Assembly (NCBI GenBank): GCA_029098185.1
Contig: JAQXNV010000017.1
Location: forward strand, 66 to 64,065
DNA length: 64,000 nt
Origin: Oscillospiraceae bacterium
GTDB lineage: Bacteria > Bacillota > Clostridia > Oscillospirales > Acutalibacteraceae
Reading direction: 5' to 3'
In this document: positions 12,940 to 40,734 of the stretch, in pieces
How positions within the stretch are numbered: position 1 is the stretch's first letter
Layout of the letters: each line of letters opens with the position of its first letter
Position numbers and translations under genes: made by a program
Notes under the pieces: model-generated
What the model saw: the letters and a program-made list of their open reading frames with translations, nothing else
What the model was told of the DNA's origin: nothing
Databases searched by the model: none

Positions 12940-12949
12940 GGCAGATTGT

Positions 12950-21835: not shown

Positions 21836-21855
21836 AAAATAGATCATGAAATAAG

Positions 21856-24081: not shown

Positions 24082-24105
24082 ACGGGAGATCCTCCTAACG
24101 AAAAA

Positions 24106-24309: not shown

Positions 24310-24366
24310 GAAAAGAAAATCAATTTGAAGTTGCGTTGGCAATGGAGAGCATTTGGAGGTTATCCC

Positions 24367-24663
24367 ATGACAATCGAAAAAAAGCAAAACGGAAACACTT
24401 TGGAGCTGAAGCTGACAGGTCGTCTGGATACGATGACGGCGCCGGAATTGGAAGCGGTTTTAAAAGAAACGATCGATGGAATGGAAAAGCTGGATCTCGA
24501 TTTCAGCGGACTGGAATATCTGTCCTCTGCAGGCCTTCGGGTATTGCTGACGGCGCAGAAGATCATGAATAAGCAGGGAGAAATGGTTATCCATAACGTC
24601 AACGACACCATCATGGAAGTGTTTGAAGTGACCGGATTTGTGGATATTTTGACCATTGCGTGA
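24367..24663 (+). CDS. STAS-domain anti-sigma-factor antagonist (SpoIIAA/RsbV-like)
   Basis: 98 aa. DFSGLEYLSSAGLRVLL contains the conserved phosphorylatable Ser context. RBS tggagg. Confidence 0.88.
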   Translation: MTIEKKQNGNTLELKLTGRLDTMTAPELEAVLKETIDGMEKLDLDFSGLEYLSSAGLRVLLTAQKIMNKQGEMVIHNVNDTIMEVFEVTGFVDILTIA

Positions 24664-24699
24664 TCCCATTTTGACAAAAGCCACGGAAGGGGTAACAGG

Positions 24700-27135
24700 G
24701 TGACGATTTTCATTTTAGCGGTCACAGCCGCCGTACCGATTCTGCTGTCTGCCGGCTTATTTTTGCTGGATAGACGAACACGGTTCGGTAAACTGCACTA
24801 CATAAAAAAGCAAATCATATACGGGCTCCTTTTTGGCGCACTGGCTGTGTGCGGCACAGAATTCGGTATCGATACCGGCGGCGCCATCATCAATGTGCGG
24901 GATGCTGCGCCCCTTTGTGCCGGCTTGTTTTTTGGGGCGCCATCGGGCGTCATTGCCGGAGTTATCGGCGGAGTGGAACGCTATTTGGCCGTTTTTTGGG
25001 GCGCGGGGGAATATACGCAGTTAGCCTGTTCCATCGCAACGGTGTTTGCCGGATGCTTTGGCGCTGCGCTGCGAAAATTCCTGTTTGACAACAAACGCGC
25101 GCCCTGGTATCACGCCATGACCATCGCGGCAGTCACAGAGATCCTGCACATGCTGCTGATCTTTTTGACCAATATGCACGACGTCAGCACAGCCTTCTCC
25201 TTTGTGCGCACCTGTGCGCTGACCATGATCCTGCTCAATACCGCATCGGTCACCGGCGCGGCGCTGGTCCTGTATTTTCTGGAGTCAGACCAGCGGCAGG
25301 ACCGTCACGGGCCGCTGCAGCTATCGCAAAAGTTTTCTATCTGGTTGATGTTCAGCGTGGTTGCGGCGTTTTTGGCGGCGACGACACTGTCCTTTGTCCT
25401 ACAGACGCAAATGTCGGAAAACAATGCCAATGAACTATTGCGGCTGAACATCGACGACGTGAAGGAGGACATCAACGACGCTTCAGACAAGAACCTGTTG
25501 ACCATTACGAGATCGGTTGCCGATGAAGTAGAATCTTTGACAAACGTCGACACACAAACGCTGGATACGCTGCGAAAAAAGTATGATATTGCCGAGATCA
25601 ATATCATCGACAAATGGGGCGTTATCCGCACGTCTACCAATCCGGACTTTATTTTCTATAATATGAACGGCGGTTCCCAGTCGTCAGAATTTTTACAACT
25701 GCTGGACGGAACGACGACAGAATTTGTGCAGGGCTACGGCCCTACGTCCTCAGACAGTAGCGTGCTGCGGAAATATGGCGCCGTTACCTTAAAGGATGGC
25801 GGATTTGTCCAGGTGGCCTACGATGCCAAGCGATTCCAAAAGGACATCGACGGCCAGGTCATCGGCATCACGAGAAACCGCCATGTGGGCGAGGGCGGAT
25901 TCATCCTCATCGCCAACGAATCGGGAGAGATCGTCAGTGACCGGAACCAGAACGAGGGCACTAGTCTGGAGACAGCCGGCATTCAGATCAAGGAAAACGC
26001 CATCCAGCAAGAGCAGCGGTTTGAAGCGGAGGTTTATGGGGAAAAGAGCTATTGTATGTATGTAAAGTCGGAGGGCTATTACATCATCTCGGTCCTGCCG
26101 CGGCAGGAGGCTGTTTTCTCCAGAGATGTTTCCTCTTATATTACGCTGTTTATGGAGATCGTCGTCTTTGGTCTGCTGTTCATGCTGGTATTCCTGCTCA
26201 TCAAGCATCTGATCCTGGACAATCTTCGCAAGGTGAACCATTCCCTGTCGGAGATCACCAACGGCAATTTGGATATTGTGGTAGATGTCCGCAGTAACCA
26301 GGAATTTGCAAAGCTGTCCGATGACATCAACGCCACGGTCACTACGCTCAAGCATTATATCGAAGCGGAGGCAGCCCGGATCGACAAGGAGCTGGAGTTT
26401 GCCAAATCCATTCAGCATTCGGCACTGCCCAGCGTGTTCCCACCTTATCCTAACCGGACAGAGTTCGACATTTACGCCACCATGGATACGGCCAAAGAGG
26501 TCGGCGGCGACTTCTATGATTTCTATCTGCTGGATCAGGACCATCTGGCGTTTCTCATTGCGGACGTTTCCGGTAAGGGCATTCCGGCGGCGCTGTTCAT
26601 GATGACGGCCAAAACGCTGATCAAGAGTCTCGCAGAGGCCGGAAACGCAGTCAACGATGTGTTTACGCTGGCCAATGAAAAGCTGTGCGAAAACAATGAA
26701 GCCGGGATGTTTGTAACGGCCTGGATGGGCATTTTGGATCTAAAGACCGGACTGGTAGAATTTGCTAACGCCGGCCACAATCCGCCGCTGATGCGAAAGA
26801 AGGGCGGCGAATTTACCTATCTGAAGAGCCGCGCCGGTTTTGTGCTGGCCGGTATGGAGGGCATCCACTACCGGAAAAACGAATTGCAACTGGAGCCGGG
26901 GGATGAGATCTATCTCTACACCGACGGCGTGACCGAAGCCACCGATCTCAACGAGGCCCTTTAGGGAGAGGAACGGCTGCAAAGCTTCCTCAATTCTATC
27001 GGGACGCCGGACGCAAAAACGCTGTGTGCAGGCGTCAAGGCAGATGTGGATCGGTTTGTGCGGACAGCGCCGCAGTTTGACGATATTACCATGGTTTCTC
27101 TGCAATATAAAGGGAACAAGGAGGAAGAAGAATGA
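24700..27135 (+). pseudogene. Membrane sensor PP2C phosphatase (5TM LytS-like N-domain, extracytoplasmic region, HAMP, SpoIIE/PP2C), interrupted by an in-frame TAG at 26962-26964
   Basis: PP2C motifs AKEVGGDFYDFY, ADVSGKGIPAALFM and YLYTDGVTEA precede the TAG. The same frame then continues GEERLQSFLN...APQFDDITMVSLQY (the family's C-terminal metal-binding Asp region). It ends in a TGA that overlaps the ATG of the next gene (ATGA at 27132-35). Confidence 0.8.
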
Positions 27136-27539
27136 AAAAGCTGACAGTAGACGCGATCAAAGAAAATATCGAAGTGGTCACCCAGTTTGTCGATGAGCAG
27201 TTGGAGGAATTCAATTGTTCCATGAAAGCGCAGATGCAGATCAATATCGCCATCGACGAGCTGTTTGGCAATATTGCCGCCTATGCGTACAATCCGGAAA
27301 TTGGACCGGCCACAGTCTGTGTTCAGGTAGTGGGGGAGCCGCTGTCGGTGGTGATCACCTTTATGGACCACGGCGTGCCTTTCGACCCGCTGCAGCAAAA
27401 ATCGCCAGACACGACCCTTTCTGCGGAGGAGCGGGAAATTGGCGGCCTGGGCATTTACATGGTCAAACAGAGCATGGACGATATTTCTTATGAATATAAA
27501 GATGGCAAAAACATTTTGACGATTCAGAAAACGATTTAA
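27132..27539 (+). CDS. RsbW/SpoIIAB-like anti-sigma-factor serine kinase (HATPase_c_2)
   Basis: 135 aa with N-box AIDELFGNIAAYAY and G-box EIGGLGIYMV. It is translationally coupled to the phosphatase frame. Confidence 0.85.
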   Translation: MKKLTVDAIKENIEVVTQFVDEQLEEFNCSMKAQMQINIAIDELFGNIAAYAYNPEIGPATVCVQVVGEPLSVVITFMDHGVPFDPLQQKSPDTTLSAEEREIGGLGIYMVKQSMDDISYEYKDGKNILTIQKTI

Positions 27540-27550
27540 GGGAGTGCGGT

Positions 27551-28024
27551 ATGGATCATAAAATTTTCAGAAAAAAGAGTCTTGAAAAGGTTTCCTCGCC
27601 AGAGCAGCTCAACGACTACGTCCGGGTGTCCAATCCCAGCGTTTGGATGATTATGGTGGGCGTAATCATCCTGCTCATCGGCGTTTGCGTGTGGGGGATC
27701 TTCGGCCGGCTGGATACCCAGATCAGCACCGTTGGCGTCTGCAAGGATGGGGTGCTGACCTGTTATGTGAAGGAGGAGAACATCTCCTCTGTAAAGGAAG
27801 GCATGACGCTGGAGGCCGACGGCCAGCAACTTAAGGTAGAGGGCATCAGCCGGGAAGCGAGCCAGGATACCAATGAGATGAGTGATTATACGCTTCATGT
27901 GGGCAACCTGCAAAAAGGAGAGTGGGTCTACCATGTGACGACGCCGGCTGACCTGGATGACGGCACTTACAACGTAAAGATCACGACAGAAAGTATTGCG
28001 CCGATGTCATTTGTGTTGAATTGA
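27551..28024 (+). CDS. Short HlyD-like membrane-fusion/secretion accessory protein (NHLM-system type)
   Basis: The N-terminus FRKKSLEKVSSPEQLNDYV plus a single TM matches the start of HlyD-type bacteriocin secretion proteins. Only about 100 aa of beta-rich periplasmic part follows, with no long coiled-coil hairpin. Confidence 0.6.
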   Translation: MDHKIFRKKSLEKVSSPEQLNDYVRVSNPSVWMIMVGVIILLIGVCVWGIFGRLDTQISTVGVCKDGVLTCYVKEENISSVKEGMTLEADGQQLKVEGISREASQDTNEMSDYTLHVGNLQKGEWVYHVTTPADLDDGTYNVKITTESIAPMSFVLN

Positions 28025-28034
28025 GGGACGCCCT

Positions 28035-30221
28035 ATGCAGAAGAAAAAGACGAAAATCAAACATCCTGTGCAGGGGGGCGTGGTGAAGGTGCCGGTCGTT
28101 ATGCAGATGGAGGCGCTGGAATGCGGCGCTGCATCGCTGGCGATGGTGATGGCCTACTATGACAAGTGGATCCCGCTGGAGCAGGTCCGTACCGACTGCG
28201 GCGTGTCGAGAGATGGTTCCAATGCGAGAAATATGCTCAAAGCTGCCAGAAGCTATGGGATGATCGCAAAGGGCTATCGGTTCGAGCCGGAAGAGCTGCG
28301 GGAAAAGGGGACGTTTCCCTGTATCATCCACTGGAACTTTAACCACTTTGTGGTGCTGGACGGGTTCCGGGGCAATAAAGCCTATCTCAATGACCCTGCC
28401 AGAGGCAACTATACGGTTTCTATGGAAACCTTTGACGAATCGTTTACCGGCATTTGCCTGATGATGGAGCCGGGGGACGATTTTGAACCGGGCGGCAAGC
28501 AGAAGAGCATCCTCAGCTTTGCCAAAAAGCGGTTGATCGGCACCGGAGCGGCAGTAGCTTTTGTGGTGCTCACCACCTGTATTTCATCGCTGATGGGCAT
28601 CATCAATCCGGCCTTCTCACGGATCTTTCTGGACCGGCTGCTCACGGGGCAAAACCCAGAATGGGTGATTCCCTTCTTCATCGCCCTAGGCGGCATGGGG
28701 ATTATCCAACTGGTGGTGGCGTGGATCCAGGCCGTGTACTCTCTGCGGATCAACGGCAAAATGTCTGTGGTGGGCAATACCAGCTTTATGTGGAAGGTCC
28801 TGCGCTTGCCCATGGAGTTTTTCTCCCAGCGCATGGCCGGTGACATCCAGCAGCGCCAGGGCACCAATGCTTCTATTGCGGAGGGACTGGTCAATACCTT
28901 TGCGCCGCTGGTGCTGGAAACCATCATGATGATCTTTTATCTGGTGGTCATGCTGCGGTATAGCTGGGTGCTGACGATGATCGGCCTGGTGGCTATCGTG
29001 GTCAACTTGATCGTTTCCAATATCATCTCCAAAAAGCGGATCAATATCACCCGTGTGCAGATGCGGGATTCCGGTAAGCTGGCCAGCGCCACCGTTGCGG
29101 GCATCGAGATGATCGAGACCATTAAGGCCAGCGGCGCCGAGAACGGTTACTTCGAAAGATGGTCCGGCTACCAGGCCAGCGTCAATACGCAGCAGGTCCG
29201 GTTTGCCCGGCTCAATCAGTATCTCGGCATGATCCCCACGTTGGTCTCGTCCCTGGCAGGCACCGCCGTGTTGATGATCGGCGTATACCTGACCATGCAG
29301 GGAGAGTTTACTGTCGGTATGATCGCCCAGTTCCAGGGCTTGCTCAGCTCCTTCACTGCCCCTGCCATGACGCTGATCAGCGCCGGACAGACGCTGCAGG
29401 AGATGCGCACCGAAATGGAACGGGTAGAGGATGTGATGGAATATCCCACAGACGTGAACTACGAAAGCGAAGAGGAAGAAAAAGACGCAGAATACAGTAA
29501 GCTGTCCGGCAATGTGGAGATGAAAAACGTCACCTTTGGCTATTCCCGCCTGGGTGAGCCGCTGATCAAAGATTTTAATCTGACGCTGAAAACCGGCAGC
29601 CGGGTGGCTTTTGTCGGCTCGTCGGGCTGCGGTAAATCGACGCTCTCTAAGCTGATCTCCGGCCTATACCAGCCCTGGAGCGGCGAGATCCTATTTGACG
29701 GCAAGCCCATCAAAGACATTGACCGCAGTGTGTTCCGGGGTTCTCTGGCCGTTGTGGATCAGGATATTATTTTGTTTGAGGATACCATCGCCAACAATAT
29801 CAAGATGTGGGATGACTCCATCGAGGACTTTGAGATGATCATGGCGGCCCGTGATGCGCAGATCCACGACGACATCATGCAGCGGGACGGCGGTTATCAG
29901 TATAAGCTGACTGAGGACGGCAAAGACTTTTCCGGCGGTCAGCGGCAGCGGATGGAGATCGCCCGGGTGCTGGCGCAGGATCCGACCATCATCATTTTGG
30001 ATGAGGCCACCAGCGCCTTGGACGCAAAGACAGAGTACGAGGTCGTCAAGGCCATCAAGGACCGGGGCATTACCTGTATCGTCGTTGCCCACCGGCTGTC
30101 CACCATTCGGGACTGTGACGAGATCATCGTACTGGATCACGGCAATGTAGTAGAGCGGGGTACCCATGACGAATTGTACGCTAAAGGCGGCGTTTACACC
30201 GAGCTGGTGTCCAATGAATAA
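28035..30221 (+). CDS. Bacteriocin-type ABC exporter with an N-terminal C39 peptidase domain (peptidase/permease/ATPase)
   Basis: C39 catalytic context QMEALECGAASLAMV, HFVVL, NDP. It has six TM helices, Walker A GSSGCGKST, signature FSGGQRQR and Walker B IIILDEATSALD. Confidence 0.92.
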   Translation: MQKKKTKIKHPVQGGVVKVPVVMQMEALECGAASLAMVMAYYDKWIPLEQVRTDCGVSRDGSNARNMLKAARSYGMIAKGYRFEPEELREKGTFPCIIHWNFNHFVVLDGFRGNKAYLNDPARGNYTVSMETFDESFTGICLMMEPGDDFEPGGKQKSILSFAKKRLIGTGAAVAFVVLTTCISSLMGIINPAFSRIFLDRLLTGQNPEWVIPFFIALGGMGIIQLVVAWIQAVYSLRINGKMSVVGNTSFMWKVLRLPMEFFSQRMAGDIQQRQGTNASIAEGLVNTFAPLVLETIMMIFYLVVMLRYSWVLTMIGLVAIVVNLIVSNIISKKRINITRVQMRDSGKLASATVAGIEMIETIKASGAENGYFERWSGYQASVNTQQVRFARLNQYLGMIPTLVSSLAGTAVLMIGVYLTMQGEFTVGMIAQFQGLLSSFTAPAMTLISAGQTLQEMRTEMERVEDVMEYPTDVNYESEEEEKDAEYSKLSGNVEMKNVTFGYSRLGEPLIKDFNLTLKTGSRVAFVGSSGCGKSTLSKLISGLYQPWSGEILFDGKPIKDIDRSVFRGSLAVVDQDIILFEDTIANNIKMWDDSIEDFEMIMAARDAQIHDDIMQRDGGYQYKLTEDGKDFSGGQRQRMEIARVLAQDPTIIILDEATSALDAKTEYEVVKAIKDRGITCIVVAHRLSTIRDCDEIIVLDHGNVVERGTHDELYAKGGVYTELVSNE

Positions 30222-30233
30222 GGAGGTGGAAAC

Positions 30234-32468
30234 ATGGGTTGGTTTGATGAACAGATAAAACAAAGAAAACAACACGACGACGATGTTTTCACAGATTCCT
30301 TTCTCAACATCGCCCGGTCTGTCGTCGGCAACAAGGCGGGCTCTCAGTTTCAGGATGACCAGAAGATTGCCAAGAGCACCTTTGACCAGATCTTAAAATA
30401 TTACCATGTCAAGACCCGGGAAGTGCCGGAGAGCATCAAAAACCGGGACGATCAATTGGAATATCTCCTGCGGCCCTACGGCATCATGCGGCGGAACGTC
30501 AATTTAGACGATGGCTGGTATAAGGACGCCATCGGCGCTATGCTGGGCGTGCGCAAAAGCGACGGGACCGTTGTGGCGCTGATCCCCTCGGGACTGTCGG
30601 GCTATAGCTACATTGACCCGGATACAGGCAAACGGATGCGGGTCAATAAGAAACGGCAAAAGCTGTTTGAAAAGGAAGCTGTGGCGTTTTATAAGCCGTT
30701 CCCGCTGAAGAAGCTGGGTATCCCGGCACTGCTAAAGTATATCGTCGAAACGCTGTCGATCTCCGACTTTGTGCTGTTGGGCATCGTAACGCTGGCCGTT
30801 ACCCTTATCGGTATGCTGACGCCAAAGCTGAACAGCCTGCTGTTTTCCGACGTCATCAATTCGGGCAGTATGCGGCTATTGATCTCCATCACCATCTTTA
30901 TGGTGTGCGTGACCATTACTCAGCTTTTGATCTCGGCGGCAAAATCTTTGGTAACGGCCCGGATCAATACGAAGATGAGTATTTCCGTTGAGGGCGCAAC
31001 GATGATGCGGGTGCTGTCGCTGCCGGCGGATTTCTTTAAACAGTACAGCGCCGGTGAATTGTCCTCCCGTGCCTCCAGCATCAATACGCTGTGTAATATG
31101 CTGGTGTCCACCATTTTATCCTCCGGCCTGAGCTCTCTGTTTTCTCTGCTGTATATTACGCAGATCTTCGCTTACGCACCATCATTGGTCATCCCAGCGC
31201 TGGTGATCATCGGGATCACATTGGCCTTTTCTCTGGCATCCACGCTGATGCAGATGAAGATCAGTAAGCGCCAGATGGAGCTGTCCTCTAAGGAGAGCGG
31301 CATGACGTATGCGCTGCTCACCGGTATCCAGAAAATCAAGCTGGCCGGCGCGGAAAAACGTGCTTTTGCCCGCTGGGGCAACCTGTACGCCAAGGAGGCG
31401 GAGCTATCCTATCGTCCGCCGGTTTTCCTGCGGATCAACAGCGTGATCTCCACCGGTATTTCTTTGGCCGGCAGCTTTGTCATGTACTTTATGGCCGTTC
31501 AGTCGGGGATCTCCATTGCCGACTACTACGCCTTTAACGCCGCTTACGGCATGGTGTCGGGCGCGTTTTTGTCGGTGCAGTCCATTGCACTGACCGTGGC
31601 CCGCATCAAACCGGTTTTGGAGATGGTGAAGCCGCTGCTGGAAACGGTCCCGGAAATCTCCGAGGGCAAGCAGGTGATCACACGGCTCAGCGGCGGCATC
31701 GAGCTGAACAATATCTCCTTCCGCTACCAGGAAAATATGCCGCTGGTCATCGACGATCTTTCGCTGAAGATCCGGCCTGGCCAATATGTGGCCATCGTCG
31801 GTGCAACGGGCTGCGGCAAGTCCACGCTGATGCGTTTGATGCTGGGTTTTGAAAAGCCCCAAAAGGGCGCCATCTTTTACGATGGAAAGGACCTGAGCAA
31901 TATCGACCTTAAATCTCTGCGGAAAAATATCGGCACCGTGATGCAAAACGGCAAGCTGTTCCAGGGCGACATCTATTCCAATATCGTCATTTCTGCGCCG
32001 CGCCTTACGATGGACGAAGCGTGGGAGGCGGCGGAGCTGGCCGGCATTGCCGAGGATATTCGCCAGATGCCCATGGAGATGCACACCGTGATCTCTGAGG
32101 GGCAGGGCGGTATTTCCGGCGGTCAGCGGCAGCGCTTGATGATCGCCCGTGCCGTGGCGCCAAAGCCGAAGATCCTGATGTTTGACGAGGCCACCAGCGC
32201 CCTGGATAACCTGACCCAGAAGAAGATCTCCGAATCGCTGGCCAATCTCAAATGCACACGGATCGTCATTGCCCACCGGTTGTCCACCATCCAGCAGTGT
32301 GACCGGATCATCGTGCTGGATAAGGGCAAGATCATTGAGGACGGCAAGTATGATGAGCTGATCGCCCAGAATGGATTCTTTGCGGAATTGGTCGCAAGAC
32401 AACGGCTGGATCTGGGCCAGGAAGCGGTGACAGAAGCGCCAAAGCAGGCGGCAAAAGCGACTTGTTGA
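30234..32468 (+). CDS. Second ABC exporter subunit with a degenerate, Cys-free C39-like N-domain (permease/ATPase)
   Basis: Walker A GATGCGKST, signature ISGGQRQR and Walker B ILMFDEATSALD. The first 165 aa or so contain no Cys, and TVVALIP replaces HFVVL. Confidence 0.9.
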   Translation: MGWFDEQIKQRKQHDDDVFTDSFLNIARSVVGNKAGSQFQDDQKIAKSTFDQILKYYHVKTREVPESIKNRDDQLEYLLRPYGIMRRNVNLDDGWYKDAIGAMLGVRKSDGTVVALIPSGLSGYSYIDPDTGKRMRVNKKRQKLFEKEAVAFYKPFPLKKLGIPALLKYIVETLSISDFVLLGIVTLAVTLIGMLTPKLNSLLFSDVINSGSMRLLISITIFMVCVTITQLLISAAKSLVTARINTKMSISVEGATMMRVLSLPADFFKQYSAGELSSRASSINTLCNMLVSTILSSGLSSLFSLLYITQIFAYAPSLVIPALVIIGITLAFSLASTLMQMKISKRQMELSSKESGMTYALLTGIQKIKLAGAEKRAFARWGNLYAKEAELSYRPPVFLRINSVISTGISLAGSFVMYFMAVQSGISIADYYAFNAAYGMVSGAFLSVQSIALTVARIKPVLEMVKPLLETVPEISEGKQVITRLSGGIELNNISFRYQENMPLVIDDLSLKIRPGQYVAIVGATGCGKSTLMRLMLGFEKPQKGAIFYDGKDLSNIDLKSLRKNIGTVMQNGKLFQGDIYSNIVISAPRLTMDEAWEAAELAGIAEDIRQMPMEMHTVISEGQGGISGGQRQRLMIARAVAPKPKILMFDEATSALDNLTQKKISESLANLKCTRIVIAHRLSTIQQCDRIIVLDKGKIIEDGKYDELIAQNGFFAELVARQRLDLGQEAVTEAPKQAAKATC

Positions 32469-32506
32469 CCCATTGTGTTATCGGAAGAAAGGACAGGTGA
32501 GATGGG

Positions 32507-33403
32507 ATGAGATCCAAAAGGGCGCACAGGGATGCCAAACATTGGGGGAAGAGGTCCCGCAAAAAAACGGCAGTGCTGCTGCTTTGCTGTATCTGTCTGT
32601 CCGCATTCTGGCTGTCTGGCTGCGGCACCAAAGATATTACCGGGGAAATTGATCTTGACCGGGTTTATGAAGCCAATAAGACAAGCAATCTGCTGCAAAA
32701 CCATCGCAGTATTCGGCAGACGGTAGGGTCGGAGGATTTTACGGTCTACATTGATCGGGAGCGGTATTTCTATGAGCTCGGCGATGATTACCGGCAATTG
32801 GTCGGCGATGATTTTTCCTTCGTTTACTATGACGGCAAATTTTCCGGCGTGCTCTATGCAGACAGCGGAAAATACCGTGAGACCTATACAAGCATTTTTC
32901 TGACAGACAGCTTCCGGGAGGAAACACTGGTCAGCGCCACGGATGACGGTACACAGATCCATCTCAAGACCCAGTATGACGCAAAGCAGGATGAACCAGA
33001 TTTGGGATTATCCAAAGGCGATCACTGTGACTACGTTTATGTGCTGGACAGCAAGACGTATGAGCTGATTGAGGGTAGGCAGACGCTCACAGACGCTGAC
33101 GGCAAGATGACGGTGGACTATCGCTCGAAAATCACTTATGATACCCCGTTGCCCAAAGAGGCAGCGGAGATGGAGGAGCGCTCCAAGCCGGACACAGACC
33201 TGCGTACGTTGACGGTCGTGCTGGACCCGAATACGAAAAAGGAAAAGGTATATTCTCGAACCGTGCGCAAGGGAGACTACTTCAGCGTTGTCATTCCCGA
33301 CGGTTATACGATGTATGAGGATGAAGATTGTACGATCCCCTATGAAGAGGATCTGGATGACAACGAGCATCATCTCTTACTCTTTGCAAAACCATCTGCA
33401 TAG
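32507..33403 (+). CDS. Lipoprotein of unknown function
   Basis: A basic N-terminus is followed by LLLCCICLSAFWLSGC (lipobox LSGC). I recognise no family. Confidence 0.7.
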   Translation: MRSKRAHRDAKHWGKRSRKKTAVLLLCCICLSAFWLSGCGTKDITGEIDLDRVYEANKTSNLLQNHRSIRQTVGSEDFTVYIDRERYFYELGDDYRQLVGDDFSFVYYDGKFSGVLYADSGKYRETYTSIFLTDSFREETLVSATDDGTQIHLKTQYDAKQDEPDLGLSKGDHCDYVYVLDSKTYELIEGRQTLTDADGKMTVDYRSKITYDTPLPKEAAEMEERSKPDTDLRTLTVVLDPNTKKEKVYSRTVRKGDYFSVVIPDGYTMYEDEDCTIPYEEDLDDNEHHLLLFAKPSA

Positions 33404-33414
33404 CCAGAATAAAG

Positions 33415-33463
33415 AGCAGCGAAAGATCACGGCAATTTGCGGTGAGAAAATCGCTGCTTTTTT
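33415..33463 (+). terminator. Terminator at the end of the export operon
   Basis: AGCAGCGA...TCGCTGCT stem with a structured loop, followed by TTTTTT. Confidence 0.65.
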
Positions 33464-33526
33464 GCTGTGTGGCCATAAAAAAGAAAAAATTTTAAAATTT
33501 TTTTGTTTTTAGCCCATTTTATTGCG

Positions 33527-33564
33527 ATTTTGTTGCAGTTTTGTTGCACTTCGGGGTGTAGAAT
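33527..33564 (+). promoter_or_regulatory. Promoter of the GG-leader gene, with two direct TTTTGTTGCA repeats over the -35 region
   Basis: TTTTGTTGCA occurs at 33528-37 and 33539-48 (11-bp period). TG plus TAGAAT follows at 33557-64. Confidence 0.55.
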
Positions 33565-33618
33565 AAACATCATAAGGGAAAGTATGATGAGACATGAAAT
33601 AGAATGGAGTGAATGGCT

Positions 33619-33930
33619 ATGGCAGAAAAGGACACAGCGCTATGGAAAAATGAATTGGAAGAATCAGAACTGGACACGATTTCCGGTGGTACTACAGAGG
33701 AAGTGCGGGGAAATCTGTTCCATTTGCAGGATTCTGTTCTGGTAGATACCTGGTCGGGCAAGCAGGAACCGGCAACGATCGTTGGCGTATCCTATCGCAT
33801 CATTGGAGGCCAGCGGAAGATCACTTATGCGGTGCAGTATGATGTGGATAACGTGATCGAGGAAAACATTTTTGAAGATGCCTTAAAGCGAAATCCAAAC
33901 AAAAAGCATGACCGAGCATTACAGCAATGA
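33619..33930 (+). CDS. Double-glycine-leader precursor (24-aa leader plus 79-aa hydrophilic Cys-free core)
   Basis: The leader MAEKDTALWKNELEESELDTISGG fits the LSxxELxxIxGG consensus. GGAG lies 9 nt upstream of the ATG at 33619; the ATG at 33613 is an alternative. The predicted cleavage is after nt 33690. Confidence 0.7.
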   Translation: MAEKDTALWKNELEESELDTISGGTTEEVRGNLFHLQDSVLVDTWSGKQEPATIVGVSYRIIGGQRKITYAVQYDVDNVIEENIFEDALKRNPNKKHDRALQQ

Positions 33931-33975
33931 TCGCAAGGCAAAACGTGATGATTTCCAAGAAAGGAGGAAGGCAGC

Positions 33976-34803
33976 ATGAAGATTTTGATCGCTGATGACG
34001 AACGACTTTCTTTGGCGCATCTGGAGGAGACAGTGGAAAAAGCGTATCCCGACGCTTTTGTCAAGGGGTTCCGCGATCCAGAGGATCTGCTTTCCTATGC
34101 CGGAGAAAAGGGGTGTGACATCGCCCTGCTGGATATTGAAATGCGGTCTATGAACGGCGTGGAAGCTGCCCAGCGGTTACAGGCGTTACAGCCAAAGGTG
34201 AACATTATTTTTGTCACGGCCCACAGCGGCTATACGGGAGACGCCATGCGGATGCACGCCAGCGGATACCTGCTCAAGCCGGTGACGCTGGAAGCAGTGC
34301 GCAGGGAGCTATGTGACCTTCGTTATCCGGTCACACCGGGAAAACCCACCGTTCTGCAGATCCGCTGCTTTGGCAATTTTGCGGTATTTTGTCCCGACGG
34401 AACACCCGTCGCCTTTCGGCGCTCCAAAGCAAAGGAAGCGCTGGCGTATCTTGTCCATCTTGGCGGCGCATCCTGTACCGTAAAGGAACTGGCGGCTGTG
34501 TTGTTTGAAGATCGCCCCTATGACAAGCGGGCACAGGGATATATTCAGAAGATCATCTCCTCCATGATGGCGACGCTGAAAGCAGTCGGTGCAGAGGAAG
34601 CGATTCTCAAGTGTTACAACAGTCTGGCGTTAAATCGGGAAGTGGTAGACTGCGATCTTTATGATTGTCTGGAGCGAGAGGACGAGGAGACGATCCGCAC
34701 TCTGCCCTATATGACCCAGTATTCCTGGGGAGAGGGGACTTCCGCCCGGTTAAAAGAAGGGGAAACGCCGACAAAAGATGAGCCGCAAGGCCCTTCGACA
34801 TAA
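33976..34803 (+). CDS. Response regulator, receiver plus SARP/OmpR-type winged helix, paralog of RR1 (RR2)
   Basis: It is collinear with RR1: DIEMRSMNGVE, IIFVTAHSGY, ASGYLLKPVT, LQIRCFGNFAVFCPDG...SKAKEALAYLVHLGG. RBS aaaggagga. There is no terminator between the GG-leader gene and this gene. Confidence 0.85.
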   Translation: MKILIADDERLSLAHLEETVEKAYPDAFVKGFRDPEDLLSYAGEKGCDIALLDIEMRSMNGVEAAQRLQALQPKVNIIFVTAHSGYTGDAMRMHASGYLLKPVTLEAVRRELCDLRYPVTPGKPTVLQIRCFGNFAVFCPDGTPVAFRRSKAKEALAYLVHLGGASCTVKELAAVLFEDRPYDKRAQGYIQKIISSMMATLKAVGAEEAILKCYNSLALNREVVDCDLYDCLEREDEETIRTLPYMTQYSWGEGTSARLKEGETPTKDEPQGPST

Positions 34804-34807
34804 TGGA

Positions 34808-34836
34808 AAACCTCCCAAAACGGGAGGCTTTTTTTG
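34808..34836. terminator. Bidirectional terminator between RR2 and the LysR gene
   Basis: CCTCCC-aaaac-GGGAGG followed by a T-tract. Confidence 0.8.
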
Positions 34837-34842
34837 TGGTGG

Positions 34843-35739
34843 TCATTGGGCAGCGTCGATATACTGCTTTAGTTCCCGGAAGATCCCTTCATATTCACTG
34901 CTAAAAGCGCTGCCCTTGTTCCAGAGAAAGGTGAAGTCCCGTTGCAGCTCAAATCCGGACAGGGGGATCTTTTGGAGGATGCCGTCAGCAATTTCCTGCG
35001 CTACAGCGGAGCGGTACAAAAAGGAGATGCCACAGTCATCGCAGAGCAGACGGACAATACAGTGGATGCTTTCCAGTTCCACCCGGTGATGAAAATCGCT
35101 GACCGATAAATTTTGCAATGCCAGCGCTTTAGCCAGAACAGCCCGAGTGCCAGAACCGGCTTCCCGCAGGAGCAGTCGTTCCCGGGTCAGATCCTGGAGC
35201 GTGTGGATCGGCTGCGCAAACCGGTGGTGGCTGGAGCATACGGCAATATATTCTTCCTGCTTGAATTGCCGTGTCTCGTAGTGGTCTGGCTTAAAATAGC
35301 CTTCCACAATGGCAAAATCCATATTGCCCTCTCGCAGATAGGATAGGAGCGTCTGGGTATTGCCGTAGCGAATGCGAAGATCCGTGTCGGGATGGGCGGA
35401 AATCAGCTTGCTAATGGCTGGCGGGATGATGTATTCGCCAATGGTCATGGTGACGCCAAAGGTCAGGATCTTTTTGTCCGATAGACTTTCCCGCATCCGA
35501 TTTTTCAGCGTCGTTTCATCGTTGCGCAGCGTTTCCAGGGTGGCGCGCAGTAATTCTCCGGCAGGGGTCAGGCGCAGCTTTTTCTTTTCCCGCAGGAACA
35601 GCGGCGTTTCATATTTTTCTTCCAGATAGCGAATGTGCTGAGAAACAGCCGGCTGTGTCAGGTTTAAAGCGGCGGCCGCCCGGGTAAAATTCATATATTC
35701 GCAGACCGTTAAAAATGTCTCGGTTCGAAAATCCAGCAT
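34843..35739 (-). CDS. LysR-family transcriptional regulator
   Basis: The HTH reads FLTVCEYMNFTRAAAALNLTQPAVSQHIRYLE. The start is at M9 of the ORF-track protein (RBS aggagg). It is divergent from the YeiH-like gene. Confidence 0.88.
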   Translation of the reverse strand: MLDFRTETFLTVCEYMNFTRAAAALNLTQPAVSQHIRYLEEKYETPLFLREKKKLRLTPAGELLRATLETLRNDETTLKNRMRESLSDKKILTFGVTMTIGEYIIPPAISKLISAHPDTDLRIRYGNTQTLLSYLREGNMDFAIVEGYFKPDHYETRQFKQEEYIAVCSSHHRFAQPIHTLQDLTRERLLLREAGSGTRAVLAKALALQNLSVSDFHHRVELESIHCIVRLLCDDCGISFLYRSAVAQEIADGILQKIPLSGFELQRDFTFLWNKGSAFSSEYEGIFRELKQYIDAAQ

Positions 35740-35775
35740 AAAAAGCCTCCTGTCCATGGGCAAATACCACGTTTG

Positions 35776-35803
35776 TTCCTATTATAAGAAATATTTATGG
35801 GAA
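35776..35803. promoter_or_regulatory. Candidate LysR-type operator
   Basis: Inverted repeat TTCCTAT-N14-ATGGGAA enclosing ATAA-N7-TTAT (T-N11-A pattern), in the divergent intergenic region. Confidence 0.45.
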
Positions 35804-35888
35804 TATCAAGATTTATCATTTTACAAAATCGTAAAAAACGGGTATAGTAGATAGTGCAAGAGAGAGTTTTTCAGAAAGGAACAAAAAC

Positions 35889-36935
35889 ATGAAGGAGTTT
35901 ATTCGAACAAGCTGGATGGGTATCCTATTCTGTCTGGCCGTAGCGGTACCGTGTTACTTTTTGGGGCAGTTGGTGCCGGTCATCGGCGGACCAGTGTTTG
36001 CGATCATCGCCGGTATCCTGCTGGGACTGCTGCTCAAGCGGAACGATACCATCGCACGCACGCTGGCACCCGGCGTCAAATTCACAGCAAAGAAAGTGCT
36101 GCAATACGCCGTCATCCTGTTGGGCTTTGGCATGAATTTGGAGGTCGTGTTGCAAACGGGCACCCAGTCTCTGCCCATCATCCTCTGTACCATCACCGTA
36201 TCGTTGCTGCTGGCCTTTATTTTACAGCGGGTACTGAAAATGCCCGGTAAGATCGCCACGCTCATTGGTGTGGGCTCGTCCATCTGCGGTGGTTCCGCCA
36301 TTGCGGCCACCGCTCCGGTCATCGACGCCGACGAGGACGAGGTAGCCCAGTCTATTTCCGTCATTTTCCTGTTCAACATTTTGGCGGCATTGATTTTCCC
36401 GTGGCTGGGAACAGCTCTGGGCTTTTCCACAACTACCGGCGATGCCTTTGGCGTCTTTGCCGGTACAGCTGTCAACGATACGTCCTCTGTGACAGCGGCT
36501 GCTTCTACCTGGGACAGTATGTACAATTTGGGCAGCCAGACGCTGGACAAGGCCGTTACGGTCAAGCTGACAAGAACGCTGGCCATCATCCCCATCACAC
36601 TGGGACTGGCTTTCTTCCGCACCCGCAAGACAAAGCAGCAGGGCGGCGAGAAGATCCCCTTTAAGAAGATCTTCCCCTTTTTCATTTTGTTTTTCATCGC
36701 TGCCAGCGTGATCACCACCATTGCGGTTGCCTGCGGCGTTCCGGCAAACTTTTTCACGCCGGCAAAAACACTGTCGAAGTTCCTCATCGTCATGGCCATG
36801 GCCGCCATCGGCTTTAACACAGACGTCGTAAAGCTCATCAAGAGCGGCGCCAAACCCATCCTGCTTGGGTTTTGCTGTTGGGCAGGCATCACCGGCACTA
36901 CGCTGGGATTGCAATCGCTCCTGCACATTTGGTAA
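35889..36935 (+). CDS. YeiH/UPF0324-family membrane protein (putative sulfate-exporter family)
   Basis: About 10 TM helices with GSSICGGSAIAA and FAGTAVNDTS motifs. It shows the classic divergent LysR (YeiE-like) pairing. Confidence 0.82.
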   Translation: MKEFIRTSWMGILFCLAVAVPCYFLGQLVPVIGGPVFAIIAGILLGLLLKRNDTIARTLAPGVKFTAKKVLQYAVILLGFGMNLEVVLQTGTQSLPIILCTITVSLLLAFILQRVLKMPGKIATLIGVGSSICGGSAIAATAPVIDADEDEVAQSISVIFLFNILAALIFPWLGTALGFSTTTGDAFGVFAGTAVNDTSSVTAAASTWDSMYNLGSQTLDKAVTVKLTRTLAIIPITLGLAFFRTRKTKQQGGEKIPFKKIFPFFILFFIAASVITTIAVACGVPANFFTPAKTLSKFLIVMAMAAIGFNTDVVKLIKSGAKPILLGFCCWAGITGTTLGLQSLLHIW

Positions 36936-37048
36936 GAAGAGACAGCGCAAAAATAACGATCCCCTGCCTGATTCCTACGGCACGCAAAAACGTGGGCAAA
37001 GGAAATCGGGCAGGGGACGTTGTGGCTTTAATCGAAAGGGACTTAAGC

Positions 37049-37483
37049 TCAGATCACATAGTCGTGGGTATATCGTTCTCGCTGCTGGTCCAGTAGGTCC
37101 TGCAAGGTAACGCTGTCCAGATATTCGTTGATGATGCGGTCCAGCCCTTTCCAGACGGGAAGGGTTGCCGGTTCATTGCCGGGACCATTGGCAATTTCGC
37201 TGTAGTCCATGGGAATGGGCCGCAGATCCCCTTCGGTCAGCCGAAAGATCTCGCCGACGGTGCAGTGGTCGGGACTTTTGGCCAGTTGGTAGCCGCCCTG
37301 GAATCCCCGGGTCGTTTTGAGCAGGTCAGATTTATTGAGGATCGGCACGATCTGCTCCAAATATTTTTTGGAAATTTTCTGCCGCGATGCGATCTCCTTC
37401 AGCGAAATAAAGCCGTCTGCCTGATGCTCCGCCAGATCCAGCAGCATACGCAGCGCGTAACGTCCTTTGGTGGATATTTTCAT
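37049..37483 (-). CDS. Rrf2-family transcriptional regulator
   Basis: MKISTKGRYALRMLLDLA...ISLKEIASRQKISKKYLEQI. Confidence 0.88.
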   Translation of the reverse strand: MKISTKGRYALRMLLDLAEHQADGFISLKEIASRQKISKKYLEQIVPILNKSDLLKTTRGFQGGYQLAKSPDHCTVGEIFRLTEGDLRPIPMDYSEIANGPGNEPATLPVWKGLDRIINEYLDSVTLQDLLDQQRERYTHDYVI

Positions 37484-37692
37484 TGGAAGCTCACCTCATC
37501 CTTGTAATACACCTATAATAACATCTTTTTAGTAGGTTTTCAAGAGGGGGAGGATGAAAAAATGGAAGATTCCCTCGACAATGCTTGACAAGGTGGTCAG
37601 GATATGATACCTTTATAGTACAGTATTCATATATGTAAACTAGTATTTTGCAAAATTCACTTTTCCATCAGGAAGAATCAGGAGGAATGTTT

Positions 37693-38460
37693 ATGTGTGA
37701 GATTCTTGGATTTTCAGCCCAGGATCCACAAAATATCAACGGCTATCTGCGTACCTTCTACAGTCACAGCGTCGCCCATCCCGATGGCTGGGGGCTGGCC
37801 ACCTTCGAAAAAGGCCATGTCTGCATCCGAAAGGAGCCGGTCCGCGCCATCGACAGCCAGCGCTTGCCGAAGGTCCTGGACCATCTGGGCACCCATCAGG
37901 TCCTGATGGCGCACATCCGTTTGGCTACCGTTGGCAGCATCAATCCGAAAAACTGCCATCCTTTTTCCAGGCGGGACAACAGCGGCGTGGAGTGGACGCT
38001 GATCCACAACGGGACCATCTTCAACGGACTGGAGCTGTTTCCTTACGAATCCCAGCAAAAGGGCAGTACCGACAGCGAGCGGGTACTGCTGTACCTGGTA
38101 GATCAGATGAACCACGCCATCGGGAAAAACGGCGGGCCCCTGTCACCGGAAGAGCGATTTTTGCTGTTGGAGCAGGCGGTGAAACGGCTGTCTTACCGGA
38201 ATAAATTAAACCTGCTTTTGTACGATGGAACATTTCTTTATGTGCACACCAATATGCTGGGGACGCTCCACTACAAGACCTGGGAAAACAGTGTGCTTTT
38301 CTCCACAGCGCCCCTGGAAGAAACGGGGTGGCATCAGGTGCCCATGACGACGCTGTTGGTGTATCGGGACGGAAAGCTGTTGCGGCAGGGCGAAAATCAT
38401 CACACAGAATTTTTTGATACGCTGCACATCAGCAGCATGGAATTTGAGTATAACATCTAG
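37693..38460 (+). CDS. Class II (Ntn-type) glutamine amidotransferase-like protein
   Basis: The start MCEILGF places the nucleophilic Cys right after Met. RLATVG...NCHPF is present. GGAGG lies 7 nt upstream of the ATG at 37693. Confidence 0.78.
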   Translation: MCEILGFSAQDPQNINGYLRTFYSHSVAHPDGWGLATFEKGHVCIRKEPVRAIDSQRLPKVLDHLGTHQVLMAHIRLATVGSINPKNCHPFSRRDNSGVEWTLIHNGTIFNGLELFPYESQQKGSTDSERVLLYLVDQMNHAIGKNGGPLSPEERFLLLEQAVKRLSYRNKLNLLLYDGTFLYVHTNMLGTLHYKTWENSVLFSTAPLEETGWHQVPMTTLLVYRDGKLLRQGENHHTEFFDTLHISSMEFEYNI

Positions 38461-38471
38461 GGGGAATCCAC

Positions 38472-39854
38472 ATGATTGCTGCAACACCATTGGATAAGGC
38501 AATTTATCAGAAATATATCGAACCGACCGAGCGGAAAAGACGATCTCATGTTGGCGTGGAATTTGAACTGCCCATTGTCAACCTGAAAAAAGAACCGGTG
38601 GATTTCGCAGTGATCCACCAACTGACAGATGCTTTTCTGAAGCAGTTCCCCTTTGACCAGATCAGCCGGGACGATGAGGGCCATATCAACGCAGCCGCTT
38701 CCTCCAAAACAGGAGACAGCCTGTCCTATGATTGCAGCTACAATACCCTGGAGCTTTCCTTTGGCGTGGAAGATGATCTTTCTGTTCTGCACCGGAGATT
38801 TACGGAATACTATACCTTTTTGCAGGAGCAGTTACAGCGGTCACACCATATGCTGACCGGAATGGGCATCAACCCGTATCATGAATACAATCGAAAGGAG
38901 CCCATCCCCAATGGCCGTTACCGGATGCTGTTCCATCATTTGCAATCTTACCAAAACTATGGCGATGTGATCCCGTTCCATACCCATCCGGATTTTGGCC
39001 TGTTTTCCTGCGCCTCTCAGGTACAGTTGGATGTAGAGCGGGATGATATTCCCGAAACGCTCAATACGTTCAATCGTCTGGAGCCGCTGAAAACACTGCT
39101 GTTTGCCAATTCTCTCTGGGGAGAGCAGCACACGCTTTTGTGCAGCCGGGACCAGTTTTGGAAGAACAGTCTCCACGGCCTCAACCGCCGTAACGTGGAT
39201 CTATACGAGGTGGAATTCCAGTCTGTAGCGGAAGTGGTCGATTATCTGAAATCCATGAGCCTTTACTGCGTGGAGCGGGGGGACAAGTATCTCAATTTCC
39301 GGCCAACGCCTCTGGAAACGTACTTTGCTTTTCGCCAGATCACCGGAGAATATTTTGACGGCCAGGGCTATCAAACGCTTGCCTTTACGCCGGAGCTGGA
39401 GGACCTTGCCTATCTGCGTTCTTTTAAGCTGGTCGACCTGACGTTCCGGGGCACCATCGAGTATCGAAGCATCTGCGCGCAGCCCGTTGCAGAGATCATG
39501 GCGCCGGCGGCGTTCCATGCGGGATTGGCGGAAAAGCTGCCGGAGCTGACACAGCTTTTGGCAGAGGATACAGCGCTGTACGGCAGCGGATACAGTCCCA
39601 TTGCCCTGCGGGAGCGGCTGAACCAGCGGGGGTGGCCATCCTTTTTGGAGAAGGAGAAGATCTCCAAGCTGCTGCTGCAAGTGCTGTCTCTGGCAGAGGA
39701 CGGATTGCGCAAGCGGGGGAAAGGCGAGGAACGGTTTTTGCAGTCTTTGTACCGCCGGGCAGAGCAACTGAAAAGTCCCGCCCTGGAGATGGCAGAGGGC
39801 TTAGAAAGCGGCAAAACGGTAGAGGATTACATCATCGCCTACGCAAAACCATAA
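38472..39854 (+). CDS. Glutamate-cysteine-ligase-like carboxylate-amine ligase (GCS2-type)
   Basis: HVGVEFELPIV matches the N-terminal motif of the family, and the 460-aa size fits. The assignment is from memory, not from a search. Confidence 0.6.
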   Translation: MIAATPLDKAIYQKYIEPTERKRRSHVGVEFELPIVNLKKEPVDFAVIHQLTDAFLKQFPFDQISRDDEGHINAAASSKTGDSLSYDCSYNTLELSFGVEDDLSVLHRRFTEYYTFLQEQLQRSHHMLTGMGINPYHEYNRKEPIPNGRYRMLFHHLQSYQNYGDVIPFHTHPDFGLFSCASQVQLDVERDDIPETLNTFNRLEPLKTLLFANSLWGEQHTLLCSRDQFWKNSLHGLNRRNVDLYEVEFQSVAEVVDYLKSMSLYCVERGDKYLNFRPTPLETYFAFRQITGEYFDGQGYQTLAFTPELEDLAYLRSFKLVDLTFRGTIEYRSICAQPVAEIMAPAAFHAGLAEKLPELTQLLAEDTALYGSGYSPIALRERLNQRGWPSFLEKEKISKLLLQVLSLAEDGLRKRGKGEERFLQSLYRRAEQLKSPALEMAEGLESGKTVEDYIIAYAKP

Positions 39855-39867
39855 GAAAATAGCGCAG

Positions 39868-39903
39868 CACCTCCCAGGGAATCATGCCGTGGGAGGTGTT
39901 TTT
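39868..39903. terminator. Terminator between the ligase gene and the convergent ttcA
   Basis: CACCTCCCA-N13-TGGGAGGTG followed by TTTTT. Confidence 0.8.
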
Positions 39904-39915
39904 GCGTTGCAAAGG

Positions 39916-40734
39916 TCAATAGCGCTCTAAAAAGCTGTGGATGGTGTCGCTGTCACTGGTTCGGTAGCCGATGATCGTTTCCAGGTTGACGTTGTGGACG
40001 CTGGCAAAAATATTTTTGTCCACATTGGGAGAATCCTTTCGGAGCTGCCGGATCAGTTGCTTTACAAACTGTCGCTTGGAATCGGCGATCATCTCGGCAC
40101 TGGCGGTAAAATGGCAGGCGCACTGCAAAAAGGTCAGGTCGTTGTAATTTTTCCAACTGATGATCTGCTCCTCTTTCACCAGGTACAGGGGACGGATCAG
40201 CTCCATGCCGGGGAAATTGGTGCTGTGGAGCTTTGGCATCATGGTTTTGTATTCGCCAGCGTACAGGGTGCTCATGAGGATCGTCTCCACCACATCGTCA
40301 AAATGGTGACCCAGGGCGATCTTATTGCAGCCCAGCGATTTTGCAAATTTATACAGGTATCCCCGCCGCATCCGCGCGCAAAGATAACAAGGGCTTTGTT
40401 GGATGTTATCCACCACATTAAAAATGGGCGCTTCAAAAATATGGATGGGGATCTGTAAGCATTGGGCATTGTATTCGATCTGCCGGCGATTTTCCGGCGC
40501 ATAGCCCGGATCCATGACAAGATACTCTACAGAAAAAGCAAAATCGCTGTATTTTTGCAGGTGCTGCATACATTTTGCCAGCAGCATGGAATCCTTTCCG
40601 CCGGAGATGCACACCGCTACCTTGTCGCCTTCCTGCAAAAGCTGGTAATCTTTAATGCCACCGATAAACCGGTTCCAAATTGTTTTGCGGTATTTTTTGA
40701 TGATGCTCCGCTCCACTTCCAAGTGTTTTTCCAT
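39916..40734 (-). CDS. ttcA: TtcA-family tRNA 2-thiocytidine synthetase (PP-loop ATPase)
   Basis: SGGKDS PP-loop and CYLCARMRRG. Confidence 0.85.
   Translation of the reverse strand: MEKHLEVERSIIKKYRKTIWNRFIGGIKDYQLLQEGDKVAVCISGGKDSMLLAKCMQHLQKYSDFAFSVEYLVMDPGYAPENRRQIEYNAQCLQIPIHIFEAPIFNVVDNIQQSPCYLCARMRRGYLYKFAKSLGCNKIALGHHFDDVVETILMSTLYAGEYKTMMPKLHSTNFPGMELIRPLYLVKEEQIISWKNYNDLTFLQCACHFTASAEMIADSKRQFVKQLIRQLRKDSPNVDKNIFASVHNVNLETIIGYRTSDSDTIHSFLERY

Follow-up and report, generated by a model that had tools for sequence, protein, structure and literature searches.

ATP-binding cassette (ABC) exporters that contain a peptidase and act on cargo with a double-glycine leader have been described in several systems. 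PCAT1 of Clostridium thermocellum (PDB 4RY2, 6V9Z) translocates CtA, an unstructured cargo of 66 amino acids (aa) and of unknown function, which is recognised via its leader alone (PMC6959990). The determinants of leader processing were established by truncation, mutagenesis and a co-crystal structure for LahT150, from the LahT/LahA system of Lachnospiraceae bacterium C6A11 (Bobeica et al. 2019, PMC6363468). For this protease, 13 residues at the end of the leader are enough and Gly-Gly is needed; positions -4 and -7 do not accept charged residues, cleavage suffers from most of the replacements tried at -12 (Lys, Asp, Phe, Trp; Ala is partly tolerated), and positions -3, -5 and -8 are free. Finally, Haft, Basu and Mitchell (2010; PMC2887384) defined the three-gene NHLP/Nif11 export cluster (TIGR03794/03796/03797). 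Here, we analysed a window of 64,000 nucleotides from an Oscillospiraceae bacterium (contig JAQXNV010000017.1), and in particular a small gene at 33619-33930 which, in the public annotation of the same sequence, encodes a hypothetical protein of 103 aa from an Oscillospiraceae metagenome-assembled genome (MAG), with the same start at ATG 33619. The product of this gene is very probably an unmodified protein of 9 kDa, cut and secreted by the neighbouring peptidase-ABC exporter. The best explanation overall, which we consider likely, is that it combines a genuine 24-residue double-glycine secretion leader with C39 ABC export of an unmodified 79-aa protein, the whole being produced from a two-component-regulated bicistron.

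The leader, numbered by hand, has L-12, E-8, L-7, I-4, S-3, G-2 and G-1 (G23-G24 of the 103-aa precursor). These assignments confirm those of an earlier note on this DNA, which had read L(-12), E(-8), L(-7), I(-4), G(-2) and G(-1) from the letters alone and had proposed the product as cargo for the neighbouring C39 ABC exporter. When a regular expression for the motif was run over the six frames of the window, a single correctly placed match was obtained, namely the precursor open reading frame (ORF), which is thus the sole candidate cargo found by this search. The leader was also scored against a position matrix built from 110 distinct 15-residue leader ends, taken from double-glycine ORFs downstream of the transporter in 80 loci of other genomes that encode a relative (65-75% identical) of ABC2, the second ABC protein of the exporter. 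The consensus of these 110 cargo leaders is SGELSDEELDNVAGG and the corresponding leader end here is KNELEESELDTISGG. It scores 25.5 bits, while no other one of the 86,948 15-mers obtained by translating the window in six frames exceeds 10 bits, and it is still in the top 0.01% of the background at positions that were not used in picking the training set. The leader is therefore homologous to those of this exporter clade, rather than a coincidental match.

In addition, L-12, L-7, I-4 and Gly-Gly together provide every residue required by LahT150, so that cleavage after G24 and export by ABC1/ABC2 are strongly predicted. Both this agreement and the homology of the leader support the cargo assignment of the earlier note. 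All the attributes of a double-glycine substrate are found together: Gly-Gly at -2/-1, hydrophobic residues at -4/-7/-12 along with E-8, and a cognate C39 transporter nearby. An internal RIIGG was considered as a second cleavage site and ruled out, as its -7 and -12 residues are Ser and Thr.

ABC1 and ABC2, the latter ending 1.15 kb upstream of the precursor ORF, both exceed the curated equivalog thresholds set for the NHLP export system. ABC1 matches Peptidase_C39 at 4e-34 and its protease domain is identical to LahT150 (PDB 6MPZ) at 103 of 142 positions (72.5%), with the catalytic residues kept (Gln24, Cys30, His and Asp, aligned to LahT Gln21, Cys27, His101 and Asp117). The two systems thus share the C39 domain, its catalytic residues, the -12/-7/-4/GG determinants and a leader ending of the form ...EL.D.V/I.GG, and related loci carry several hypervariable precursors. 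However, LahA precursors have long Nif11-type leaders and short cores and are accompanied by a lanthipeptide synthetase, whereas we find here a 24-aa leader, a 79-aa Cys-free core and no modifying enzyme. PCAT1/CtA shares with the present system an unmodified, protein-sized cargo (66 aa for CtA, 79 aa here) and a 24-residue L(-12)...E(-8)L(-7)...GG leader, but PCAT1 is a homodimer while the exporter here is an ABC1+ABC2 pair. PCAT1 is distantly related to ABC1 (343 bits over the full length, 59 bits over the protease domain).

Similarly, the NHLP/Nif11 cluster shares the equivalog-level ABC1 and ABC2, and its cargo comes after the transporter and is hypervariable past the Gly-Gly. The present locus differs by a 157-aa HlyD-like component and by the lack of an NHLP/Nif11 leader domain (the precursor matches neither the TIGR03793 (NHLP) nor the TIGR03798 (Nif11-like) leader model at E <= 1) and of enzymes for thiazole/oxazole-modified microcins (TOMM) or lanthionine formation. 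The 157-aa membrane protein reaches 34.5 bits against TIGR03794, for which the cut-off is 156.2, and is thus not a full-length membrane-fusion protein; this short form is conserved in 70 related loci. Judged from these matches, the operon is a three-gene NHLP/Nif11 export cluster whose fusion protein is truncated, in keeping with an organism that has a single membrane. Class II microcins are likewise unmodified, smaller than 10 kDa, endowed with double-glycine leaders and exported by peptidase-ABC proteins, but they come from Gram-negative bacteria and are TolC-dependent, Gly/Ala-rich and hydrophobic, with an adjacent immunity gene, none of which applies here. As PCAT1/CtA and class II microcins are published precedents, protein-sized double-glycine cargo is already known. 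By its leader and exporter, the precursor is accordingly predicted to be cargo of a LahT/NHLM-type exporter, a known kind, with a core sequence seen nowhere else.

Several features indicate that the precursor frame is a real gene. Its codon usage (0.29 bits per codon) lies within the range of the genes of the window (0.37 +/- 0.16) and far from that of wrong frames (-0.47 +/- 0.38), as expected for a real gene, while the five other frames over the same stretch score between -0.24 and -0.65. The start codon is at ATG 33619, 9 nt past a GGAG ribosome-binding site; a second in-frame ATG, at 33613, is only 3 nt past it. Among alternatives, minus-strand ORFs over the stretch were rejected for their negative codon scores. 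An ORF in another frame of the plus strand (33585-33745, 53 codons, MMRHEIEWSEW...), which lies behind AAGGGAAAG and overlaps the precursor start, is probably not a gene, because its codon score is negative (-0.45). No RNA family of Rfam was matched in the region 20000-40000. The coordinates of all features are given in Table 1.

Table 1. Features of the precursor gene, its transcription unit and the neighbouring exporter operon; positions are those of the 64,000-nucleotide window.
Feature	Position	Strand	Description
Histidine kinase and response regulator RR1	21968-24081	+	Kinase with PF06580 + HATPase_c and a polytopic N-terminus, 21968-23293; RR1, 23290-24081
Partner-switching module	24364-27539	+	STAS; 5TMR-LYT/SpoIIE phosphatase; HATPase_c_2 kinase; heads the exporter operon
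Short membrane protein, 157 aa	27551-28024	+	HlyD-like, TIGR03794, model positions 1-52 of 421 only
ABC1	28035-30221	+	C39 peptidase/permease/ATPase (Peptidase_C39 + ABC_membrane + ABC_tran); TIGR03796, 964.1 bits vs cut-off 853.3
ABC2	30234-32468	+	Permease/ATPase partner without peptidase; TIGR03797, 742.7 bits vs cut-off 709.4
Lipoprotein-like protein	32507-33403	+	LSGC lipobox, no known family; closes the exporter operon
Intrinsic terminator past the lipoprotein gene	33411-33468	+	Strong; 33411-33462 with a T run behind it; -28.1 kcal/mol, z = -4.9; sets the precursor gene apart from the exporter operon
Tandem direct repeat TTTTGTTGCA x2	33528-33548 (33528-33537, 33539-33548)	+	Perfect, 11-bp period; candidate winged-helix regulator site
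TAGAAT, -10-like hexamer	33559-33564	+	Read from the sequence; no usable -35 at 16-18 nt
GGAG ribosome-binding site	33606-33609	+	9 nt 5' of ATG 33619; read from the sequence
Precursor ORF	33619-33930	+	ATG 33619, TGA 33928-33930; 103 codons + stop; predicted precursor of a secreted protein
Double-glycine leader, 24 aa, MAEKDTALWKNELEESELDTISGG	33619-33690	+	Predicted cleavage after G24, from motif, profile and LahT150 determinants
Mature core, 79 aa, 9.06 kDa	33691-33927	+	Cys-free, pI 5.6; probable beta-rich middle at about 15-50; basic, probably disordered tail at 66-79
RR2, orphan response regulator	33976-34803	+	Second gene of the bicistron; receiver + OmpR/PhoB-like output; 44% identical to RR1
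Intrinsic terminator closing the bicistron	34811-34837	+	Terminator prediction

The predicted mature product comprises 12 acidic (D+E) and 10 basic (K+R) residues, 2 His and no Cys, with an isoelectric point (pI) of 5.6 and a grand average of hydropathy (GRAVY) of -0.66. Its highest 19-residue Kyte-Doolittle mean is 0.56, and it is therefore devoid of a membrane-spanning stretch. This computed composition agrees with the 79-aa, Cys-free mature part with about 12 acidic and 10 basic residues that the earlier note had counted by hand. An acidic, hydrophilic core without a hydrophobic or long amphipathic stretch is also in line with its view that the product is not a pore-forming peptide. Nor does the product resemble class II bacteriocins in pI and GRAVY, and the next gene encodes a response regulator instead of a small immunity protein. 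As regards peptides made by the ribosome and modified after translation (RiPPs), no LanM/LanB/LanC, YcaO or radical SAM enzyme is encoded among the genes at 12950-39854 (about 10 kb around). A RiPP is therefore excluded on present evidence, as the earlier note had anticipated, and the lack of Cys in the core points the same way.

No relative of the core was detected. When 5.8 billion clusters were queried by a word-indexed search, the precursor protein itself was the only match, and an exhaustive HMMER search of 1.84 billion representatives (clustered from 15 billion proteins), a type of search that had been suggested in the earlier note, returned it along with two spurious, compositionally biased repeat proteins. 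No match was obtained for the core in PDB sequences, Pfam, NCBIfam, PHROGs or PADLOC, or by local phmmer against all ORFs of the window and of 160+ fetched loci, and the core does not resemble CtA in sequence. As homologues are lacking, an alignment could not be built and AlphaFold was run on single sequences. The mean predicted local distance difference test (pLDDT) score was 49 for the full-length precursor and 57 for the core alone, for which an antiparallel three-stranded sheet is modelled (core residues 15-19, 25-38 and 41-50, pLDDT 61-77), everything past residue 52 being below pLDDT 50. Foldseek retrieved nothing from the PDB below E = 0.5 (best E = 0.56), the few Tudor entries being listed among many unrelated folds with a probability <=0.2, and no Pfam match was detected even at E <= 10. 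The SH3/Tudor-like beta-barrel proposed in the earlier note is thus unsupported, as there are only three modelled strands, no Pfam, NCBIfam or PDB match and no Foldseek hit better than E = 0.56; the structure prediction and Foldseek search that it had recommended yield a three-stranded sheet of moderate confidence and no fold match. In a charge-hydropathy analysis, core residues 9-65 are classed as folded and the basic tail (66-79) as disordered, and the central 57 residues exhibit an alternating hydrophobic pattern. A beta-rich central region is therefore plausible: according to these predictions, the middle of the core probably forms beta structure and the basic tail is probably disordered.

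To place the core among the cargo of related exporters, we considered the 80 loci with an ABC2 relative, 71 of which have enough downstream sequence, and which yielded 253 candidate double-glycine cores. Double-glycine ORFs occur downstream of ABC2 in 68 of the 71 loci. The median core is 54 aa long and 144 of the 253 are at least 50 aa, so that protein-sized cores are normal in this clade and a size of 79 aa is not exceptional; the earlier note had thus overstated how unusual such a long core is. Most related cores are Cys-rich, and only about 11 are both Cys-free and at least 50 aa long, a few of these being spurious matches to the loose motif. Cores that are long, hydrophilic and free of Cys occur, for example, at L017:12991 (84 aa), L008:7256 (72 aa) and L080:8381 (74 aa). 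On these counts, a 79-aa Cys-free cargo belongs to a minority class in an exporter family that routinely handles protein-sized cargo. The cargo of the clade is hypervariable and often multi-copy. For annotation, it is worth bearing in mind that such genes are to be recognised by the leader and not by the core.

Upstream of the precursor gene, the lipoprotein-like gene belongs to a rare family without a Pfam match: 5.8 billion clusters contain only three relatives (39-41% identical), and homologues are present in four fetched loci. Its relatives always adjoin a STAS/SpoIIE/HATPase_c_2 module, even where exporter and cargo are absent (loci L167 and L168). In two other loci, L039 (lipoprotein at 14976-15848) and L169, lipoprotein homologues are followed by unrelated double-glycine cargo; the site thus behaves as a cargo slot. 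Segments homologous to the lipoprotein are also found inside larger proteins of about 870-1065 aa (L017, L041).

The precursor ORF and the gene of RR2 are separated by a 45-nt gap without a terminator, and the pair is flanked by terminators, which supports the co-transcription with a response regulator that had been proposed from the letters alone. In the 215-nt intergenic region, the TTTTGTTGCA repeat ends 10 nt before the TAGAAT hexamer. PhoB-type activation classically involves two direct repeats of 11-bp period that stand in for the -35 element, some 10 bp from the -10, and RR1 and RR2 weakly match PhoB/VanR/CreB-type models across their receiver and winged-helix parts. The repeat may thus be a Pho-box-like site bound by RR2 or RR1. 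Given the position of the repeats 10 nt upstream of the -10, the lack of a -35 and the OmpR/PhoB geometry, production is most likely switched on by phosphorylated RR2 or RR1. Other near-copies of TTTTGTTGCA in the window were ruled out as members of a regulon, since all of them lie within the hairpin or T run of a terminator. The closest RR2 relatives elsewhere (53-56% identical) are all encoded directly behind a PF06580 kinase, with no double-glycine ORF or exporter nearby, so that no positional homologue of the precursor is seen among them. RR2 is therefore an orphan regulator and the precursor ORF occupies the place of the kinase gene. The possibility that the core is a remnant of a kinase gene was dropped, as a similarity search found no such relationship. 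The kinase/RR1 pair is the candidate sensor pair of the circuit, with a putative link to the cargo, and the orphan response regulator provides a concrete, testable route to the function of the product. Two paralogous regulators (44% identical) thus bracket the exporter cluster, with a single histidine kinase; among the related loci, this kinase/regulator pair was observed in L079 alone.

These elements suggest the following mechanism. Phosphorylated RR2 or RR1 would activate the bicistron, with the kinase at 21968 as the probable phosphodonor and with positive feedback on RR2. The leader helix would then bind to the C39 domain of ABC1, with L-12, L-7 and I-4 seated in the hydrophobic groove of this domain, which would cut the precursor after G24, and the ABC1/ABC2 pair, together with the short HlyD-like protein, would push the unfolded 79-aa chain across the single membrane, where an unmodified, acidic product of 9.06 kDa would be released. 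Docking, cleavage and translocation are inferred here from the similarity of leader and exporter to characterised proteins. If the product is secreted as predicted, it would represent a further case, like CtA, in which peptidase-ABC exporters of gut Clostridia take small unmodified proteins as cargo instead of RiPPs or short bacteriocins.

What the exported protein would do can be stated with less confidence. Given export, our tentative preference is for a secreted cue or effector tied to the two-component circuit; the signalling role and the autoregulation suggested in the earlier note are possible. In the three-component pheromone circuits comCDE, blpRHC and plnABCD, the kinases are of the HPK10 type, the regulators contain LytTR domains and the pheromones are 17-30 aa long. 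The present locus resembles them in that a double-glycine precursor is co-transcribed with a regulator and exported by a C39 ABC protein, in its two paralogous regulators (as PlnC/PlnD) and in the direct repeats of its promoter. It differs from them, as the kinase is of the PF06580 type (with HATPase_c) and located 10 kb away, the regulators have OmpR/PhoB-like outputs and no LytTR domain, and the mature product, at 79 aa, is longer than pheromones of the ComC, BlpC or PlnA type. A more specific version, in which a folded, protein-sized autoinducer exported by the LahT-type system would be sensed by the polytopic PF06580 kinase (21968-23293), either directly or via the lipoprotein, with feedback through RR1/RR2 on its own Pho-box-like promoter, seems rather unlikely to us. 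If true, it would constitute a quorum-sensing circuit built of parts unlike HPK10/LytTR, with a small protein in place of a peptide.

An antagonistic role is nearly as likely as that of a cue or effector, and deserves serious consideration although we would not bet on it: the same exporter would secrete an unmodified bacteriocin- or microcin-like protein and the upstream lipoprotein would confer immunity or self-protection. Hypervariable and often multi-copy cargo, as in this clade, is what is typically seen with competition factors; the sizes of class II microcins and CtA-type cargo are similar, and lipoprotein homologues recur beside double-glycine cargo. Moreover, some lantibiotic immunity proteins (LanI) are lipoproteins. 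However, the core is acidic and hydrophilic, lacks a membrane-active segment and matches no toxin or enzyme domain, the precursor gene is followed by a response regulator gene and not by a small immunity-type ORF, and the lipoprotein is also encoded beside partner-switching modules that have neither exporter nor cargo. A cytoplasmic small protein, such as a partner or modulator of RR2 whose leader resemblance is due to chance, would fit the translational adjacency to RR2 and the hydrophilic, acidic composition seen in many small regulators. We nevertheless regard it as very unlikely: the leader match is unique among 86,948 background 15-mers and follows the clade consensus ELSDEELDNVAGG beyond the minimal motif, and a cognate exporter lacking any other cargo ends 1.15 kb upstream.

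It is also improbable, though less so, that the gene is a young or decaying cargo gene, in which a kept or shortened leader precedes functionless sequence that may be translated and even exported. The product is a complete orphan among the 15 billion proteins represented in our searches, its gene occupies a lineage-specific position where the relatives of RR2 have a histidine kinase, its GC content at third codon positions is 0.50 as against 0.66 in other genes, and the phosphatase gene of the same locus carries a nonsense codon. Against this, the 103-codon frame is intact, with a well-spaced ribosome-binding site and gene-like codon usage, the leader keeps every functional determinant, the central 57 residues are on the folded side of the charge-hydropathy boundary and display an alternating hydrophobic pattern, and the promoter architecture looks purposeful.

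Several observations also weigh against the regulated export of a functional protein, which remains our preferred explanation. Apart from one MAG, the gene has been seen on just two short contigs (99.9-100% identical), and selection (dN/dS, the ratio of nonsynonymous to synonymous substitution rates) is not measurable because these are the only other copies. More generally, as the core has no homologue anywhere searched, neither conservation nor selection for function can be shown. While related-locus cargo usually begins within a few hundred bases of ABC2, the precursor gene is parted from its exporter by the lipoprotein gene and a terminator, unlike in most related loci. The product is much longer than known peptide pheromones, and the output domain of RR2 is assigned by weak matches only. 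Finally, the 5TMR-LYT/SpoIIE phosphatase gene (24700-27135, plus strand) contains an in-frame TAG at 26962-26964 where homologues have Tyr (NEAL*GEERL vs NELYGEERL). Past this codon, the frame runs on to 27135 and overlaps the next start codon (ATGA), and truncation at the TAG removes the conserved APQFDDITM end of the PP2C domain. The TAG is either a nonsense mutation or an assembly error, so that the locus may be decaying or may be misassembled at this point.

The exporter operon itself has a canonical promoter (TTGACC, 17 nt, TATAAT, near 24282-24310). Its leading module is not restricted to this genome: in 37-39 of the 80 related loci, counting those with enough upstream sequence, a STAS / 5TMR-LYT-SpoIIE / HATPase_c_2 module lies directly 5' of the short HlyD-like gene and ABC1/ABC2 (Lachnospiraceae and Oscillospiraceae, L003-L082). 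A literature search found no paper describing this pairing of module and exporter. LahT-like exporters of this clade, conserved along with a partner-switching module and with arrays of hypervariable cargo of 50-85 aa, occur in many gut Lachnospiraceae and Oscillospiraceae, and this conserved context of module, exporter and cargo array may matter more than the single ORF studied here.

The related loci provided some further observations on cargo. A large family of Cys-rich cargo, with cores of 60-80 aa and Nif11-like leaders, is typified by GGGCH.(G/K)DGRL(V/I)V(T/S)...C..C...YEKGLWLCNHP.N and is found in L004-L006, L009, L013, L015, L016, L020, L026, L032, L046, L051, L052, L054 and others. 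It matches no curated family, apart from sub-threshold Nif11 leader matches, and some loci carry many double-glycine ORFs (10 are listed in L032). In L065, a double-glycine cargo (9863-10198, plus strand) with the core RFAVGETVLYIHSWLGATRITATGKVVKRNYENGAWYYTLKIHDGSTIKMVESHV spans nearly the whole LBR_tudor profile, though only weakly at E = 0.14, which hints that small beta-barrel cargo may exist in the exporter clade. This cargo was dropped as evidence for the fold of the core studied here, because the resemblance between the two is statistically undetectable. Finally, in L039, a gene for an extracytoplasmic function (ECF)-type sigma factor (12567-13249) lies directly past the first cargo gene, and in front of it is an ORF of 62 aa whose leader-like ...ELSDEDVEIVSAAG has no Gly-Gly; this sigma factor might be the one controlled by the partner-switching module in that genome.

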